DNA of 62,844 nt, counting the filler, from Diploschistes diacapsis (lineage: Eukaryota): NCBI GenBank assembly GCA_023645945.1. It is 8 parts of 8 records of this genome, joined end to end, with 100 filler letters (N's around TTAATTAATTAA, not from the genome) between each part and the next. Parts side by side here need not be neighbours in the genome. Positions count along the whole stretch, not along the records: positions 1 to 24,680 come from JALAIB010000233.1; 7 more parts are not named here. The stretch is one strand, 5' to 3'. How positions within the stretch are numbered: position 1 is the stretch's first letter; every line of letters starts with the position of its first letter. The notes under the pieces are model-generated. The model ran no database searches. It saw nothing but the letters and a program-made list of their open reading frames with translations, and had not been told where the DNA came from. A program made the translations under genes and the position numbers. Shown piece by piece: positions 2,493 through 58,349 of the stretch.

Positions 2493-4391
2493 TCATCGAA
2501 TGACTCCCCATCTCTCCATTTTCCCACCACCTTCGCTATCTACGCCATCCTTGTCTCTTTTACCAAAGCACTTCCAAAATCGCAGCGTCTCATCGCCGGC
2601 CCCCGTCACGACAGTCTGACCGTCAGGACTCATGGCGAGATACAACACTCGATAAGTATGGCCGGTTAGGCTAGCAACCTGCGCCATGCTTGGATACTTC
2701 CACACAACGATTTGGTTTTGACTGTAACCATGCGTACTTACTATCTCATTGCTGTTTTTGCTCCATGCCAGGTTACATACTTGCGATCCAGTGTCGATCT
2801 CTTGTACCATAGACCCAGTCGCAGTGTTCCAGAATTTGATGCGTCGATCTGCTGTCCCGCCACCAGAAGCCAGCAGCGAATGCTGATGAGGAGACCACGC
2901 GATAGCCTTGACAGCGGCATTATGCTCGCTAAATTTGAACAAAGGAGTCTCTCCCAATTGATCCCACACCATGAGCTTATTGTCATTACCTCCAGACGCT
3001 AGCTGACCATCCTCAGCATTCCACCGTAGGCCGCAAATCTCCTGTTTGTGGCCCACGAGCTTACGGAAGTATTGGTCGGCCTGACGTACATCACGGTGGT
3101 AAATCAGTCTATCCCTAGATCCAGAAGTGAGTATGTGATCGTTCCACGCAAGCGCACCAGCCCTGGCAGTATGACCAGTCATTGTCCTTAGCCGTCGACA
3201 CCTTTCAGCATCCCATATTTGTACCAAGCCTTTATTGGTGCCAATCGCTATGTGGGAGCCCCGTTGAATCCAGGAGACTGAGGTGACGGTATCGTCGGCA
3301 AGCTCACAGAGCTTGGTGACTCGCCCAGACATTGAATTCCACATGTAAACGCATTGTCCCAATCCAACGCCCAAGATGTTGCTACTTCCCCAGTCAACTA
3401 GGTTGAGATAAAAGTCATCTGCAAGTTCTGGCGCGTCCAAGACCTTGAACGGCACCTTACTCACGGCCCTTGGGGCTTTCCGCGGACTCAAAAGTAATCG
3501 TTGACTGTCCAGTCTGACTGGTGAGAGGCTGTATAAGTCTGATCGAGCGTTCATATTCGGGCCATGCCTGCTTTGTGGCGTACGTGATGGCGTAGGTTGA
3601 CCAGAGAAATTCACGTTATGTCTTGGTGATATGTAAGAAAAGAGGTTCTTGTGCGGTGTAGAGGGCGTGAGGCTGGCGGGCGGTAAAGCTGACGGCGAGA
3701 CATTTGTGGGTGGTGTTCTCGAGCCAGACATTTCGTGAACCGCATTAGATTGGATCGAACTGCGCCGCGGTGGGTCAGGGGACAGAGATGGTGGCGTCGG
3801 TTGAGGTATGGAGGTATCGAATAGCTCAGAGCGGAGTAGTTTTGAAAATGTTCGGTTGGCCTCCTCGGCTGGAAATAATTAGAGCTATTCCTCAAACAGC
3901 AATTACTGCACTTACTTCTTTGGAAATGAAGCTCACCATTGGCCGGTCGTCGCTTTCCCTTCGACGGTGAGCTTGGAGACATCTCATCATGAAGTAAGCT
4001 GAAACTGGCTTGCAAGTCTTGCCCCTCTCGGTTTGGGATGAAGCTATGGGCTATGGTAAGCCCCTTTTCGAAAAACAATATATGGGTGGGCTGAATATGT
4101 GCGAAATTCGAGGCTTGCGCAGACTTGTAAGGGCTGTACTTACCGATCACCATATATCCGTTGTCTCTTCCTACTCGGACTTCCAGTGGGTGTCTTCTCT
4201 CTTGTGTAGCTAGCCTCTTTGAACTCTTGCAGCGCCTTGCTCAACGACTCTGCATCCACGGCCTCTGATCCACCACTTTCTAGACCTCTTCCCACGGTAC
4301 CATTGGAGTGGGCACGTTTTGAGCCATGCGCAAGCGGAGGTGTCGGGCCTTCGGTTGATGAAATTATGTTTGATGCATCCTGGCGGTCCAT
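2493..4391 (-). CDS. CDH1: APC/C activator Cdh1/Fizzy-related WD40 protein (3 exons)
   Basis: C-box DRFIPNR reconstructed across intron 4143-4044; VLDAPELADDFYLNLVDW motif; WD40 repeats; C-terminal IR tail (WGVIR). Confidence 0.95.
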
Positions 4392-5272
4392 GTGATCATG
4401 CCAAAACGGCGTGCTAGATCAGGGCAATCCTGCAATAGAGTGGCTTGAAAATCACTTGTAGTGTTGCTCAGGTCGATCGATAGATGTTGGCTACTGATCA
4501 TAAAACCACTTTGGTAAATGCAATCATATCCCAAGGATTGCTTTTCCTATCGGACATGGACACTGGATGTCGGGTAGCAACAAACTGCTGGACCACCACC
4601 AATATTCTGAATAGCTTAACCAAGACACGAGTATCTGGACGAACTGTATGCTTTAGATTGGAATGTCTGGCGCGCGGCCCTGCCACAGAATGGCTTTCGA
4701 ATTGGGGATTTGTGGAGAGATGTATTATATGGTTACCGGCTTTCAACGGGTTCTTGGGTGAAAAAGATGTTTTCTCAACGGTATGGCAAATAACTGAGGG
4801 TAGTTTAGAAAGCTCCAAAGGATTAGATATCTGGAAAGAGTTTGTATGATATGAGGTAACTGTCAATTGAATAATGTAAAGTGAAATTTCCCGACTCTAG
4901 CTTCAGTTAATGATCAAAATGCAAGTCGCGCCTTACCGTCTACTTGTTTTGTTTTGAAATGCGCATTTTCTGAGCCGCTACCAAAAGAGTATCTGCTACG
5001 ATTGGATAAGAACGCTCCTTTACCTGAATCCTTACTAGACCTTTGTACATTACCAAGCGCCTTTAGATGACCGTACCTGAGTTGCGTGCCCGTGGACCCT
5101 GTTCCCGCCTGTATACATATTTGTATGTCTGCGTCCAATGCCTATACTTCTTACCCAAGTGCAAGTAACATTAAATTGTGGCATCCAACCTATCCAGCTT
5201 TCCTTAGCCTTGCGCGCTTCTTCTCTTATAAGGGAACTCTCTTCCCGTTCCAAAAGTCGGTCCTACGGTAGT

Positions 5273-7622
5273 ATGGCACCTTCGGCTCAGCCAGGTCTTG
5301 ATTTCATTTCCTTCGTGAACAGTTCACCTTCCCCCTACCATGCTGTGCACGAGATACGTCAACGGCTAGAGAAAGCCGGCTTTCAACAGCTTCTCGAGCG
5401 GGATGACTGGTCAGAAAAATGCATCCCAGGCGGAAAGTATTTTATCACGAGAAATGCTTCTACAATCGCTGCATGGGTACGTTGATTAGATTCGGACATT
5501 GTTCGAGGGTCATTTCCAAACGGACATAGCGGCAAGTGCTAAGCATTGAAAAGGCTGTCGGTTCAAAGTGGAATCCAGGCGGACCTTTCGCCATGATCGG
5601 AGCCCAGTATGTCGTCTGGACTAAGTTTTGGTTACTCTTTTAATGGGAGAGCACAGTACGGACTCTCCGTGCTTGCGGATCAAGCCAGTTTCTCAATGCA
5701 AGAGTGAAGGTTTCTTACAGTAAGTTGACAGGCTATTTTAGTAACTGTTTAATCGGTTAAAGCTCTGGGATACTCAAGGGACGGGCTTTGCAGTGGCCTT
5801 GAGCATTTACTTGGGTTGTACGGTCTTGATATTGCGTCCTGAATCAGTTTGAGACTATCAAGCAACATTAGATTTCGTGCTGGCATCTTGACTCCCTAAC
5901 TGACATGTCTGTAGGGTGCGTTAATGGTCATATCTCCAAACCTAGAGACGGGAACGAATGATGCACTTTGGCCCATCCTCTTCCACTGCTCAGTGGACCA
6001 TTTGACTATCCGACAACTTGGAAGCATAATTGGCTGACATGAACCTAGGTTGGAGTAGAAACATAGTATGTTTACAATTAACTTTATGTCGGAATTGACT
6101 CATTTTCCATAGTGGTGGTGGATTATGGCACACTTGGTATGTTGCAACGGTTCGATTACAAACGTTATCGGAGCTGATAACTCTTTTATACAGGTTCGAC
6201 CGTGACTTGGGGGTGGCAGGAAGGGCAATGATCGAGTCAAAAAAGGGCGACATTACGCACAAACTTGTCAAGCTTGCAAAGCCCATCCTTCGAATTCCAA
6301 CACTAGCGATTCACCTTGACCGCCAGGAAAAGTTTGAGTTCAACAAGGAGACACAGTTGTTCCCAATTGCGGGAATGGTCGCCGCAGAGCTTGAAAGACA
6401 AGGCCTTTCTACGGCTCCTGGTTCAGCTTTGGAAAAGCAGTCTACTGGACCAAAGGAAGAAGACAGTGTCTTCGAACCTCTCAAGCCCTTAGAGGAGCGT
6501 CATCACCCACGTTTAGTAAGGAGTCTTTCTCTTCCTGGAGTCACACCCAGAACATTCCAGTGGCATACGTAACTTCTGCCCAGACGTCTTGGCTTGTGGA
6601 TTCACACTGCTGCCCCCCCATAACTATAGCTTGGCGATGGCTAACAACATTATCGCAGATTGAATTAATCGCAGACGACGCGGGTGTTGCTGCGAATCAA
6701 ATCCGAGACTTTGAACTGGTAGCGAAAACCTTTCATATCCTATGCTGTTTACATATCGGCTGAACGCATTAGGTCCTCTACGACACACAGAAAGCGTGCA
6801 GGGGGGGCTTGAATGATGAGTTGATCTACTCGGCCCGCTTGGACAACCTCGAAATGTCATATTGCAGTGTGGAGGCCCTGATAGACTCCGTACAGTCCTC
6901 TGATCTGGATAACGACCACTGTATTCGATTGATTGCTTTATTTGACCATGAAGAAGTAGGCTCGATGAGTGCACAAGGTGCTCAATCCAACCTTCTGCCA
7001 ACTCTCATTCGCCGTCTGTCCATTCTGCCTGGGAGCGCTTCAGGCAATAAGAAAGTAGCTGGCGACCCTGCCGCATATGAACGCTCGCTTTCGACTTCTT
7101 TCCTGATCTCAGCTGACATGGCACACTCTGTTAATCCGAACTATGCTGGTACTTAGGTCTACACCCTTTAGCAAAGTTGTTTACTTATCATAATTGATGT
7201 TGCAGGAAAATACGAAGCAAAGCACAGGCCTGTAATCAATCAAGGCACCGTGTTAAAGATCAACGCAAACCAGCGCTACACGACCAATTCGCCAGGAATT
7301 GTCCTATTGGAGGAGATTGCTCGTTCTGCGAAAGTGCCTTTACAACCTTTTGTAGTCTCTAACATCAGCCCATGTGGATCAACGATTGGACCAATGCTTT
7401 CTTCAGCTCTTGGGGTCCGCACACTGGTCAGTTCCCATTCCATGAGAGTATCAATGACTTGCTTACGTTCAACATCAGGATCTTGGTAATCCTCAACTGA
7501 GTATGCATAGCATTAGAGAGACTGGAGGCTTGTATGATGTGGATCACGCAATAAAGCTATTCAAGAGTTTTTTTGTGCAGTACCCAGCCTTAGAAAACAA
7601 GATTTTTGTCGACAACATTTAG
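5273..7622 (+). CDS. APE4: Aspartyl aminopeptidase (M18 family), multi-exon with micro-exons
   Basis: Spliced motifs SPSPYHAV, GAHTDSPCLRIKP, VGVETYGGGLWHTWFDRDL, IPTLAIHL, SARLDNL, FDHEEVGS, SADMAH, PCGSTIGP, QLSMHSIRE; stop TAG at 7620-7622. Confidence 0.93.
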
Positions 7623-8063
7623 CCACCATATCAGGAAAGATTAGCTTGAGCCTGAAATTTAGAAGTGTGAAGCAACATTTTTTCGAAGCTTTCCATTACA
7701 ACATTACAGACAATGCCTAGAGCATTAAGAGATTGTTTCACTAGCAGTAAGCTGCCTACAAAGCTTCTCACTTTCCTCTTCCATTCTGATCCTGCGGGTA
7801 TGCTTGGCAGGAGAAGTCCCACGACTGAATGGAACACTGGGGATACTTTCAGTTGTAGCAGATTTCTCGGCCTTCTAAATAAATCTGGCGTTTGAACCAA
7901 TTCTCTCTTGGGTATAACGTTGGTGTGTATTGATCCCTTGGAGGCGGGCATCTTTAGACTCGGAGTGATGGGGTACTCCACGAAATCAGCTATCTGGAGA
8001 CTCAAATTGGTCATATATGTCTCTACAACTAATTTCACATTCGAATCCCATGGCTTCTTCCCT

Positions 8064-9285
8064 TTAGGAAGGGACGATAAGAAGGTCTCCTAGCTTATCT
8101 GCCCAGAACATGGGTTTAATAGGGGCATCCTCTTTGTCCCACTCCTCTCGTTTACTCACTCCGGTCAGAACTGCCAATGTGCCTCCAAGGCCGCCTTCGT
8201 TTCCGAAGCAGATGTCCGTGTTAAGCCTATCGCCAACCATGCACGCACGCTTGCGATCAAATGCGAATTTTCCTTCTATCGCGTCCATCATAGCCTGACT
8301 GGGCTTCCCACAGCGTATTGGTTCTTTCCCTGTCATTAGGGTCAGAGGCGCTGCGATAGTGCCAGCTCCAGGAAACAAGGCGTGCGCATTAGGCAGAGTG
8401 CTATCGACGTTCGTTGCTAGGAATTTTGCCCCCCGCTGAAGGTACGCGAAAGCGAGAGAAAGCTTGAGGTAGTTAATATGGAAGTCCAGGCCAGCAAGAA
8501 CAACGCCAACTTCTGGATCGAGCGCTTCTCCAGATGCGATAGAAGTAAAGTCCGATGGCTCTATTTCCCTACGGAGAGAGGGATCTGTACCACCCACAAA
8601 AGGCACGTTCTCTGACGCCAGCTCCGTTTCGATTCCGGATTCACCGAGCACGAAGACTTTACTCCTTCCATCCGGTAGAGTCAGGATCCGGGAAATGTAG
8701 ATTGCTGCAGAGTACGACGATCCGAACACTTCATCCTGCATCAAGGTTCTAGGTCAACTTTGCCAGTGGCCAAGAGCTCTCCAAACCTCTGTTGCTGGGA
8801 TGCCCATCTTCTGTAACTTCTGCCTGTAGTCTCCTCTTGACTTTGTGCTGTTGTTTGTTACAAATACAATTTGCTTTCCTGTATTGGCGGGGAACGCCAC
8901 GCCTTAGTAACTCGTGTCGCGTCAGAGAATGGTGTTTTGGGTATACCATTCCTTCTTAGCATTTCCAAAACCTCAACAACACCCTCGAGGAGGGAATCGC
9001 CTGACCAGAGAACGCCTTTGATGGTGGCAATTAATCAGCCGTAGTCCCATGGCTCCATAGTTAGAGTGTGCTTGGTGGTTCTATTGAATGGACCTCCACT
9101 TGATCACGCACCATCACAGTCGAACAAGAAGACCTGAATACCTCAGTTAATCGTGTGTAGCCCAGTGAGCTAGCTTTTATGAAAAACCAGGCGTCCTGAA
9201 GCCTTGGAATCTGACTTACATCAAAGCTATCGATGAACCTTTTGATACCTTCCGGATCGCCCGTTAGTCTTCTTGGGACTATCAT
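8064..9285 (-). CDS. PHO13: HAD IIA phosphatase (4-nitrophenylphosphatase / phosphoglycolate phosphatase-like), multi-exon
   Basis: Spliced FDVFLFDCDGVLW, FVTNNS, FLATN, GKPS and MVGDRLNTDI motifs; ATG at 9285. Confidence 0.9.
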
Positions 9286-32042: not shown

Positions 32043-33689
32043 ATGGTATCTCGTGAAAGTGAACCGTTATCTTCTCCTCTCATCGAAGATCAGGTCGAAA
32101 GCGATAGGAGATTGAGACTAAAGATTGACTTGCGCTTGTGCTCAATAGCCGGCGTCTTATGCAGTCTGAATCTGCTCGACAGCAGCATCATCTCCAGCGC
32201 GAGCGTGACTTCTATGTTATCAGACCTCGACTTGGATGTCAGCAACAGGTTCTCCATCTCGATATTTATCTTCACAATTGCAAGCGTCAGCTTTCAACTT
32301 CCTAGCACCATTGCGGTTCGTCTGGCTGGTCCGCGAATTTACTTCGCCACGGTCACATTCCTCTTCGGTCTCCTTACGCTATGCACCGCTTTTGTGCGCT
32401 CGTGGGGCGAGATGATTGCATTGAGGGTGCTTCTCGGGATGACCATGTCTGGCATCTACCCGGGTCTCACGCTGCTAATCTCCACCTGGTACACAAGAGA
32501 GGAACAGCAGCTTCGGTTCGCTTTCCTGCAGACAGGGGAGGTCTTTATCCTCGCTACCGGAGGGATTGTGAACTATGGCCTGAACCATCTAGACCGTGCA
32601 AGAGGGCTTCGAGGATGGCAGTGGATGTTTCTCGTGCAGGGACTTATCACTATTGCCTTCGGTATTATCACGTACTGGTGGATGGTTGATTTTCCTGAGC
32701 ACTCTCGCCAGAGCTTCCGTTTCTTGGATAAAGCGGAGAGCGAACGTGCTGTTGCACGTATACAAGCCGATCGTGGTGATGTAGCGGCAGAGCGTTTCAA
32801 GCTTTCGATTATATTGCGTCAATTCCGCGATGTCAAGATCTACGGATTTGCTATCATTTTTTTCCTGCAAAACATCGTGTCAACTGCGCTGTCATACTTT
32901 CTGCCCATCATGTAAGTGGTCCTGGTAGGCGCACTCGTACGAGTAGCTGATGCTTGAAGTCTTCAAGGTGGTATGGGCTTTAGTAGCGACCAGGCGATAC
33001 TCTTGTCCCAGCCAGTAAGGTTTGCAGTGATTTCCAGAGCGTCCATTATTGATATTTCATATAGCCATATTATTATGCTGCCATTCCCGCAATAATATCA
33101 TCTCGAATAGGCGATAGTAAGTTTCACCCGATTATCTCACAGTACAAGCTTGACTACATTTAGAATATCGTCTGCGAGGCCCAATCATCATAATCAACTG
33201 CATTTGTATGATAGTGGGCTTCACCATGCTTGGATTTCCAAGTCAGGTAGCGGTTCGCTACATTGGTGTTTTCCTAGCAACAGGTGCCTACGTCAGTAAC
33301 TGGGCAGCGTTAAGCAGTTACCAAGCCAACAATATCACCGGCCAATGGCACCGTGTAGTGACTGCGGCGACAATAACTGCTTTCAACGGTCTTGGCGGGG
33401 TTGCAGGAAGCTTCATTGTTCGCCAAACCGAGGCACCGCGGTACCTCACCGCCATCTGGGTGTCGATAGGGTATGTTGCACTGGGACCCAGTAGAACTCG
33501 ACTGAACGAAGCAGCTCCCAGATATTGAGCATAGCGATAGTAGCCGCTTTTTCAATATATTTCATTGTTGCGAACCGGCAGCAGAAGCGTGGTAAACGCT
33601 TAATAGAGAGTACAGTTGGTTTTGACATCTCCTTTGAAGGGTATCGCAATGCTAAGATGACTTAGGAGGGCTTCAGGTATACATACTGA
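32043..33689 (+). CDS. MFS transporter, allantoate/nicotinate (anion:cation symporter) family, 6 exons
   Basis: KIDLRL, ISTWYTREEQQLRF, GLRGWQWMFLVQGLIT, ANNITGQ and C-terminal GFRYTY* motifs. Confidence 0.9.
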
Positions 33690-50612: not shown

Positions 50613-51596
50613 TGTAAAGGTTAATACTACAGTGTGACAATAAGGCAGATAAGTGGCTATTCGGTGGCTAGATCTCTGCTAGACGATAGATGCATTGATG
50701 AAATAACTTCTGAAGAATTATCTGTGTCTGCGAAAATTCTGCTCTTATAGAAGAACACGCTAGCGGGTCTTGGTATATGTTTAACATACCCTTTGGTAGC
50801 TCTTATGGGGTTCTACGTATTATAATTATTTTTTTTCCCCAAATTCTATCTTTAGAACGTTTAATTATCGTAACGTGTCTTTATTGTTAGTTATACAATA
50901 ACAGATTTCTAATGTGTCGTCAATCTTCTATGTTCTAATAATATTAATTATTAATACTTAATTCTATCAATATTTATTGATTCCTGGCTAGCGCGTCGAC
51001 GGCGAATCGTTAATATTTTAATATATTGTTATTATTGATTTTTAACTAACGCGTCGACGGCGAGTCGTTAATACTTTAATATATTATTGTTATTAATTCA
51101 CTACTAGCGTGGGTTTAATATAAAGGCTTTATTTTTTTATCTCTTCTCTTCCTTTCTTTATTCTTATTCTCGTCAAGTACTTATCTTATTCTCGTAGAAG
51201 CTCCATCACCATATCTAAGAATAAAGACGTCCCTGTTATCCCTAAAGATAAGGGCATTCGCCCTAAAAAGATAAAAATAGCGACGTAATATCGGATCGTT
51301 ATTAATAAGCTAACGCATTATTACTTCCGAGTATGAGCTAAACGAGTTTACTTATATCCGATATACGAAATAGATTTTAACTCGTTTGTATTTTTATAAT
51401 GATATCCTAGCGCTTCGTTTAACTTACGACGTTTATTATAAAGAACATCATATTTATAAATCGGTAAGTTAACGAGCTATAAACGAGATATTTATTGATT
51501 ATTAAAGGTTCCGAATAAGTATATTTCCTAAATTATGAAACTATAGGCCATTCGTAACATTATTTTGGACGATAAAGGAACCGAGCAGGATATAGA
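50613..51596 (+). mobile_element. LTR (starting TGTAAAGG) and adjacent decayed internal region of an LTR retrotransposon
   Basis: About 330 bp shared in reverse orientation with 62230-62574; homology begins at the TG; two tandem units of about 58 bp at about 50988-51100. Confidence 0.7.
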
Positions 51597-57861: not shown

Positions 57862-58349
57862 CTAGTCGTCGCAATCAGAATCTAATCGATCCGAATCGAA
57901 TCTATTTTTTTCTTCTTTATCCTCCTCGATTTTAAAAACGCGACGACGTTTTTTACGCGTTATAAATCGTTTCGAAACTGTCCGATTCGATTTAACCCGA
58001 ATTGTTATTTTAAAAACTTCGTCTATATTAAATATAAAACGACCTTCTAATTCGATTCGTTTATTTAATTTACGTTTTTTACGATTATTAAGAAACGTTT
58101 TTTGTTCTCGAAATTCTTTACGAAGCGTTATAAATTTAATATACGTCGATTTAAGCATACGGGTTATTCGACTCGAATAACGTTAAATCGGATTAATTAA
58201 TTTTAAAACGGCTCATAACGTCTAATTAAATTTTATTGACCTTTCGTAGTTCAGTCGCATTTAATAAAGAGCTATATAGTAAGAATAAATCTAAATCGAA
58301 TTAATTCGAGGTTAAAAAAGGCTATAAGATGGAGGTAAAGGGGTTTAAT
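57862..58349 (-). mobile_element. pogo/Fot1-like transposase 3' fragment (RIP-degraded)
   Basis: Highly similar to 59365-59850; differences are mostly transitions. Confidence 0.85.

Follow-up and report, generated by a model that had tools for sequence, protein, structure and literature searches.

Introduction

Spliceosomal exons of a single nucleotide (nt) have been reported in plants and in fungi. One was described in the Arabidopsis gene APC11 (PMC4674806), and 1-nt microexons of APC11 and VPS55 were reported across land plants (PMC8831610). In the fungal genus Fusarium, a 1-nt exon of CYP621A with the core AGGGT was described in 20 orthologues, together with junction reads from RNA sequencing (RNA-seq) (PMC12940212), and the long-read-based annotation of Coprinopsis cinerea is reported to include 13 one-nt exons in 13 genes (PMC12230235). 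Here we describe a candidate of this kind in DNA of Diploschistes diacapsis (assembly GCA_023645945.1), namely, the nucleotide G5915 in a gene for an aspartyl aminopeptidase of peptidase family M18. The whole stretch of DNA that was analysed, called the window in the following, comprises 62,844 nt and joins eight parts of eight records end to end; positions are counted along the whole window, and the gene is located on the first part (positions 1 to 24,680, JALAIB010000233.1). The initial annotation had named APC11 as the single reported case of a 1-nt exon, a statement that has become outdated with the publications on CYP621A (PMC12940212), on VPS55 (PMC8831610), and on the 13 Coprinopsis genes (PMC12230235).

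Quite probably, G5915 represents a constitutive single-nt exon of a functional M18 gene, in an ascomycete associated with lichens or rock, and is positioned between two U2-type GT-AG introns, which are called intron A and intron B. From the DNA we infer the use of these splice sites, the sequential removal of the two introns, and the expression of the gene.

The case resembles that of Fusarium CYP621A in several respects. Both are nuclear genes of filamentous ascomycetes, in both the core reads AG-G-GT with the G as exon, the exon lies inside a conserved motif, and the apparent intron has more than twice the usual length; in addition, both were found via flanking exons that are out of phase and an intron-free relative (PMC12940212). 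However, the CYP621A exon is described as common to 20 orthologues across Fusarium and documented by SRA junction reads, whereas G5915 is known to be shared only by near-identical relatives and was deduced from DNA. In the P450 gene CYP621A, the single base occupies the middle position of a Gly codon, in contrast to the third position of a Gln codon in an M18 peptidase here, and the sub-introns have lengths of 195 and 133 nt, compared to 139 nt in total reported for F. graminearum CYP621A (PMC12940212).

With APC11 and VPS55 the locus shares the arrangement of one nucleotide between two U2-type introns, which is essential for the reading frame and missed by gene predictors (PMC4674806, PMC8831610). 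A sequential removal of the introns, by intron definition and a recursive mode, has been proposed for the plant genes as it is here. The plant exons are described as ancient, land-plant-wide, and validated by reverse transcription PCR and reporter constructs, while the present case appears to be recent and is known from DNA (PMC4674806, PMC8831610). The C. cinerea cases are likewise 1-nt internal exons in fungal nuclear genes, the omission of which breaks the gene model, but this species belongs to the basidiomycetes, and its genome is rich in introns in general (PMC12230235).

Among the complex introns of fungi, the most similar are the stwintrons and the overlapping internal introns of type [D1,2]/[A2,3] of Pezizomycotina, which are described as tightly packed U2 units that are spliced consecutively, with a mid-site built around a G that is shared by or adjoins AG and GT (PMC5587772, PMC7138796). 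The units of stwintrons are nested or overlapping and leave nothing in the mRNA (PMC5587772, PMC7138796), whereas they follow one another in the present case and leave a single base in the mRNA. A stwintron sensu stricto was therefore rejected: excision of the whole interval would leave a frameshift and a stop codon.

Recursive splicing at ratchet points involves a zero-length exon and takes place in very long animal introns. The present locus resembles such ratchet points (AG|GT) in that the first reaction would form a new 5' splice site, CAG|GTGCGT, for the second (PMC4674806). It differs in that one retained base parts AG and GT, and in that the introns are short and fungal. A recursive splice site with a zero-length exon does not fit the sequence TAG-G-GTGCGT, in which the AG does not directly abut the GT. 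One-base exons between two introns have also been reported in placozoan cox1 and in mitochondrial genes of Ophiostoma, but these are flanked by mitochondrial and not by spliceosomal introns (PMC5436844, PMC12308204).

Results

Splice signals around G5915

The gene is encoded on the plus strand, and the region of interest is an interval of 329 nt (5720-6048). The upstream exon 3 (5657..5719) encodes (H)TDSPCLRIKPVSQCKSEGFL and supplies the bases CA at the first two positions of a Gln codon; it ends with ...GGT TTC TTA CA at 5719 and is followed by the donor GTAAGT (5720-5725). Downstream of the interval, a 17-nt exon (6049..6065) opens with GTT GGA GTA GAA and encodes VGVET and the first two bases of a Tyr codon. 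Together, the two exons lack exactly one base that the conserved sequence GFLQ|VGVETYGGG requires, and a direct join of 5719 to 6049 would yield CAG TTG GAG TAG, with a stop codon at 6056-6058. The frameshift and the immediate stop of a form that skips the G are thus as read in the initial annotation.

The missing base is offered by the sequence within the interval. Two overlapping branch motifs, CTAAC (5896-5900) and CTGAC (5900-5904), lie upstream of a TGTAG whose last base is 5914, at distances of 15 and 11 nt from the TAG. This TGTAG is followed by G5915 and the donor GTGCGT (5916-5921), so that the sequence reads TAG-G-GTGCGT. A further branch motif, CTGAC (6034-6038), is found 11 nt before the CCTAG that ends at 6048. 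The interval can thereby be divided into intron A (195 nt, 5720..5914), the proposed 1-nt exon (5915..5915), which would supply the third base of the CAG codon for Gln, and intron B (133 nt, 5916..6048). All splice site, branch site, and exon coordinates of the initial annotation agree with the sequence. Retention of intron A would result in CAG TAA and retention of intron B in CAG GTG CGT TAA; these two forms and the direct splicing from 5720 to 6048 all reach a stop codon within four codons. The signals of introns A and B match the consensus as well as, or better than, the signals of the eight remaining introns. With lengths of 47-143 nt for these eight introns, the 329-nt interval is a length outlier. 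Two hallmarks of a single-nt spliceosomal exon are therefore present, i.e., flanking exons whose phases differ by exactly one base and, within the interval, an AG-N-GT that combines an upstream branch site and acceptor with a downstream consensus donor. The earlier proposal that two GT-AG introns and a 1-nt exon restore FLQ-VGVETYGGG held in all tests that were run at the DNA level, from which the splicing itself is predicted.

The complete gene model (5273..7622, from ATG to stop) contains 11 exons. Exons 1 to 4 are located at 5273-5476, 5554-5606, 5657-5719, and 5915, exons 5 to 8 at 6049-6065, 6113-6136, 6194-6515, and 6659-6718, and exons 9 to 11 at 6773-7148, 7206-7426, and 7479-7622. Exon 6, which has a length of 24 nt (6113..6136), encodes (Y)GGGLWHT and provides the first two positions of a Trp codon. 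Translation of the model including G5915 yields 494 residues without a stop codon, and all ten introns have GT-AG ends. Five separately translated exons match the Pfam profile PF02127 (Peptidase_M18) with scores of 38.6-124.7 bits, compared to a cutoff of 24, and the closest relatives in the database carry the name aspartyl aminopeptidase. Full-length fungal orthologues have 61-68% identity to the model over residues 1-492, and the alignment is free of gaps from RNASTIAAW through the residues past FDRDL. The gene belongs to family M18, as it matches the Pfam profile above the curated cutoff and is colinear with named orthologues.

Comparison with orthologues

Three independent lines of evidence show that exactly one base is required between exon 3 and the VGVETY exon, i.e., motif spacing in proteins, genomic loci, and positions of the Pfam profile. 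For the first, 120 proteins were retrieved with exon 9 as query. Both motifs, H[T/S/M]DS and V/I-G/A-x-E-x-Y-G, are present in 66 of them, and the spacing is 22 residues in 66 of 66, as in the model; the remaining 54 proteins are N-terminally truncated or variant. A Gln directly precedes the V/I-G/A-x-E-x-Y-G motif in all 67 proteins that show the motif.

The second line is a set of 80 related genomic loci from metagenomes (L001-L080), 73 of which cover the site, while the other seven are short contigs without the region. All 73 informative loci encode G[F/Y]x[Q/T]-V/I-G/A-x-E-x-YGGG in one unbroken frame, with the same spacing and without an intron at this site (72 of the 80 loci are intronless there under a stricter tblastn criterion). 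The residue at the site is Gln in 71 of these loci and Thr in L044 and L079. A comparison of intron positions in orthologues had been recommended in the initial annotation, and with 73 of 73 loci intronless its outcome was uniform. Third, exon 1 aligns to positions 1-53 of the PF02127 profile and exon 7 from position 107 onward, which leaves 53 profile positions in between. The intervening exons give 159 nt, and thus the matching 53 codons, only if G5915 is counted.

Alternative splicing solutions and chance expectation

Every pair of AG and GT or GC within 5720-6048 that leaves a stop-free microexon with a length of 3n+1 was enumerated. Eleven solutions were found, and the 1-nt exon G5915 is the only one that has a GTRNGT donor (GTGCGT) and inserts no residues. 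The ten longer microexons would add 2-18 residues, make use of the donors GCTTTG, GCGTCC, GTCTTG, GTTTGA, GCTGGC, or GCTCAG, and are incompatible with the exact spacing in the orthologues. The same exact spacing excludes a canonical single intron with an upstream GT (e.g., G|GTTTCT) and an AG inside exon 5, which would remove the conserved GFLQVGV. A -1 frameshift during translation of an mRNA that had been spliced only once was also rejected, as inspection revealed no slippery heptamer at ...TTA CAG T. Two introns flanking G5915 are the only canonical solution.

Both strands of the window (125,688 nt) contain 12 AGNGTRNGT sites, including five YAGNGTRNGT sites, and the latter number corresponds to 0.013 per 329 nt. 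When stretches of 329 nt were simulated 20,000 times with a first-order Markov model, AGNGTRNGT occurred in 2.5% of them, YAGNGTRNGT in 1.3%, and YAGNGTRNGT with a CTRAY 4-40 nt upstream in 0.5%. A comparable site is therefore expected by chance in 0.5-3% of stretches of this length. No second 1-nt exon was found among the five YAGNGTRNGT sites of the window, to which the inspection was confined: the site at 33467 is an ordinary donor at an exon end, and the sites at 51105, 54867, and 58546 have a non-coding or opposite-strand context. Two AT-rich regions were noted in the window. In one of them (about 50865-51350), a segment of about 60 nt that is built on ...CGCGTCGACGGCGA(A/G)TCGTTAATA... 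is present twice at a short distance, which may reflect a repeat or what is left of a mobile element; the other (about 58200-58320) is broken by runs of N, which stand for masked or withheld bases.

Sequence variation among samples

Six sequencing runs are listed for the stretch, and contigs of four of them (X1-X4), all of which are DNA, were compared. The Logan contig of X1, a lichen metagenome and the probable source run, has no differences to the window over 5100-7469 at a depth of 90. It has an adapter-like loose end, which suggests an Illumina transposase library. X2, from another study, has one contig across 5447-6186 with 16 substitutions and small intronic deletions at 5645 and 5860, and it does not contain any insertion or deletion (indel) at 5720, 5915, or 6048. 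A base missing at the junctions had been named beforehand as an observation that would contradict the proposed splicing; the identity of X1 and the lack of indels in X2 speak against it. X3, a rock metagenome from another study, covers 5708-5868 and 5846-6048 without an indel at 5720 or 5915; its contig stops at 6048, so that the last junction is not bridged. The more distantly related X4 has no contig over 5737-6464.

Within the interval, nine substitutions were found in X2 and six in X3, none of them in a donor, in an acceptor, or in G5915. The only change in a branch motif is 6036 G>A, which is present in both X2 and X3 and converts the CTGAC of intron B to CTAAC, also a consensus sequence. 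The AG-G-GT core is retained in X2 and X3, both of which are just about 2-3% diverged. A count by hand revealed that X2 differs from the window at 11 of 1,060 exonic positions versus 20 of 858 intronic positions. The exonic changes over all runs are nine synonymous changes and six conservative replacements (I/M, E/D, I/V, P/S, S/A, I/V), among the 40 of 78 differences that were listed, which fully include both long contigs of X2.

Distribution and similarity of introns

With ten introns, and with exons of 17 and 24 nt, the gene is intron-dense for the M18 family. At eight of the ten intron positions (i2, A, B, i5, and i7-i10), the 72-80 of the 80 loci that are informative align in a single frame without gaps, and no locus was found to have an intron there. 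A shared position is apparent only for the intron at 6137-6193 (Trp|Phe-Asp-Arg-Asp-Leu), namely, with about 13 loci (L009-L019, L021, L024, L041, L057). This distribution suggests that the intron density is due to lineage-specific gain, and both introns A and B appear to be lineage-specific. On both sides of the gene, uninterrupted open reading frames are present on the minus strand, at 2493-3878 (461 amino acids, by eye WD40-repeat or Cdc20-like) and at 8064-8753 (229 amino acids, by eye HAD-phosphatase-like), so that not all genes of the contig are intron-dense.

Sequence comparisons gave no trace of how the one-base exon originated, and introns A and B resemble one another no more than expected by chance. 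An origin by duplication was rejected as unsupported: the two introns have only CTGACATG-N4-TAG|G in common, at the 3' end of each, and their best local score of 16 was reached by 42% of 1,000 shuffles. A search for introner-like copies of A or B yielded only chance matches of 10-15 nt in the 62.8-kb window and none in the other windows that were scanned. An Rfam search over 5000-7800 detected nothing but a sub-threshold match resembling a small nucleolar RNA (7686-7748, minus strand, E 0.47), and the region 5700-6070 does not form a special fold, because it is no more stable than shuffled sequences (z = +1.26).

Discussion

Introns A and B each possess a donor, a branch site, and an acceptor of their own, and each would be defined as a unit of its own. 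As only one base separates the acceptor of A from the donor of B, the two most likely could not be recognized simultaneously, and therefore the introns would have to be removed one after the other. This could occur in either order, by intron definition and in a manner similar to recursive splicing, and would follow the model that has been proposed for Arabidopsis APC11 (PMC4674806). If intron A were removed first, G5915 would land behind ...ACA and would form an ideal donor, CAG|GTGCGT, for intron B. If intron B were removed first, the acceptor TAG|G of intron A would stay unchanged. Either order would lead to ...TTA CAG GTT GGA..., which encodes FLQVG.

An extension of this scheme, and not a competitor, is a partial or regulated inclusion of G5915, with the skipped form, which ends at the stop codon 6056-6058, as a putative target of nonsense-mediated mRNA decay (NMD) that would tune the enzyme level, as suggested in the initial annotation. 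The early stop codons in the skipped form and in both retention forms are in accord with such a switch, and an artificial 1-nt exon in potato invertase is cited as having been skipped in 33% of the transcripts (PMC4674806). However, the natural APC11 exon is described as constitutive in the same report (PMC4674806), and the nearer branch site and acceptor, at 195 instead of 329 nt, should win under intron definition. A regulatory role of skipping is rather improbable.

Several observations weigh against a functional gene with a 1-nt exon. Of the eight remaining introns, seven are shorter than intron A and also shorter than intron B, and none of the listed runs that carry the stretch is an RNA run. 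The conservation of the splice signals in X2 and X3 has nearly no power at a divergence of 2-3%, because about one change is expected by chance at approximately 34 signal positions, and one was seen. The only contig of X2 over exon 9 has a G-run at 6801-6807 (G7) that is 2 nt shorter than that of the window, which would be a frameshift if real and in that case hints that the gene is dispensable. Furthermore, L007 and L009 are two loci on different contigs of one related assembly, so that they may be paralogues and the gene may be redundant. The entire interval is also lineage-specific. This, the type of the listed runs, the shorter G-run of X2, and the two loci would be in line with a young pseudogene or decaying paralogue, which would have lost one base at an exon-intron border and in which the internal AG-G-GT would be a coincidence.

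Nevertheless, this explanation is unlikely. Apart from G5915, the ten exons form an open frame of 1,484 nt, the splice sites are canonical throughout, the exons vary less than the introns, and synonymous changes outnumber the replacements, which are all conservative, among the differences listed. A composite site of the quality found around G5915 is expected by chance only in the small fraction of intervals given above. The shortened G-run of X2 is probably a read error, because X2 has minority length variants at other homopolymers as well (6187, 6209, 7568, 7598, 7678), and because X3 and X4 agree with the window at 6801-6807.

A single intron of 328 nt with one non-canonical end, either 5721-6048 (TA...AG) or 5720-6047 (GT...TA), would retain G5720 or G6048 as the third codon base, and either version would result in the same CAG codon as G5915. 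This solution is very unlikely: the GTAAGT at 5720 and the TAG at 6046-6048 are perfect canonical sites, a fully canonical alternative is present inside the interval, and TA-AG or GT-TA ends are not known to define an established intron class. An error of sequencing or assembly, i.e., a base missing at 5720 or 6049, might be suspected from the GG and GGG runs at the junctions and from the possibility that X1 represents the reads of the window itself, but it can be dismissed almost completely in view of the identical deep contig from an independent assembler, of X2, which crosses all three junctions without an indel in another study, and of X3, which crosses 5720 and 5915.

A constitutive 1-nt exon is therefore preferred, and the question of its origin arises. 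As none of the informative orthologues has an intron at the site, the one-base exon seems to be young. One conceivable though doubtful scenario is that it is newly born, and that introns A and B were inserted into neighbouring phosphodiester bonds of a single protosplice site (CA^G^GT), while the lineage was acquiring many introns in this gene. A rival model, the rescue by a cryptic AGGGT after the loss of one base, has been put forward in the report on CYP621A (PMC12940212).

G5915 is a further example of a kind that has already been published, even with the same motif, and its novelty is modest; no new kind of mechanism is opened by it. If confirmed, it would add to the one-base exons of fungal nuclear genes and, to judge from our literature search, would be the first for a peptidase as well as for an ascomycete associated with lichens or rock. 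The case is also of value for annotation, because gene predictors will truncate or frameshift the gene, as in the published cases. Its scientific value lies in its apparent youth. The flanking introns are absent from all informative orthologues, and therefore the emergence of a 1-nt exon could be traced in closer relatives. If the exon is indeed newly born, its origin, an obligatory two-step splicing, and a possible NMD-coupled skipping would be open to study near the event, and the AGGGT-rescue model (PMC12940212) could be tested against a double intron gain.

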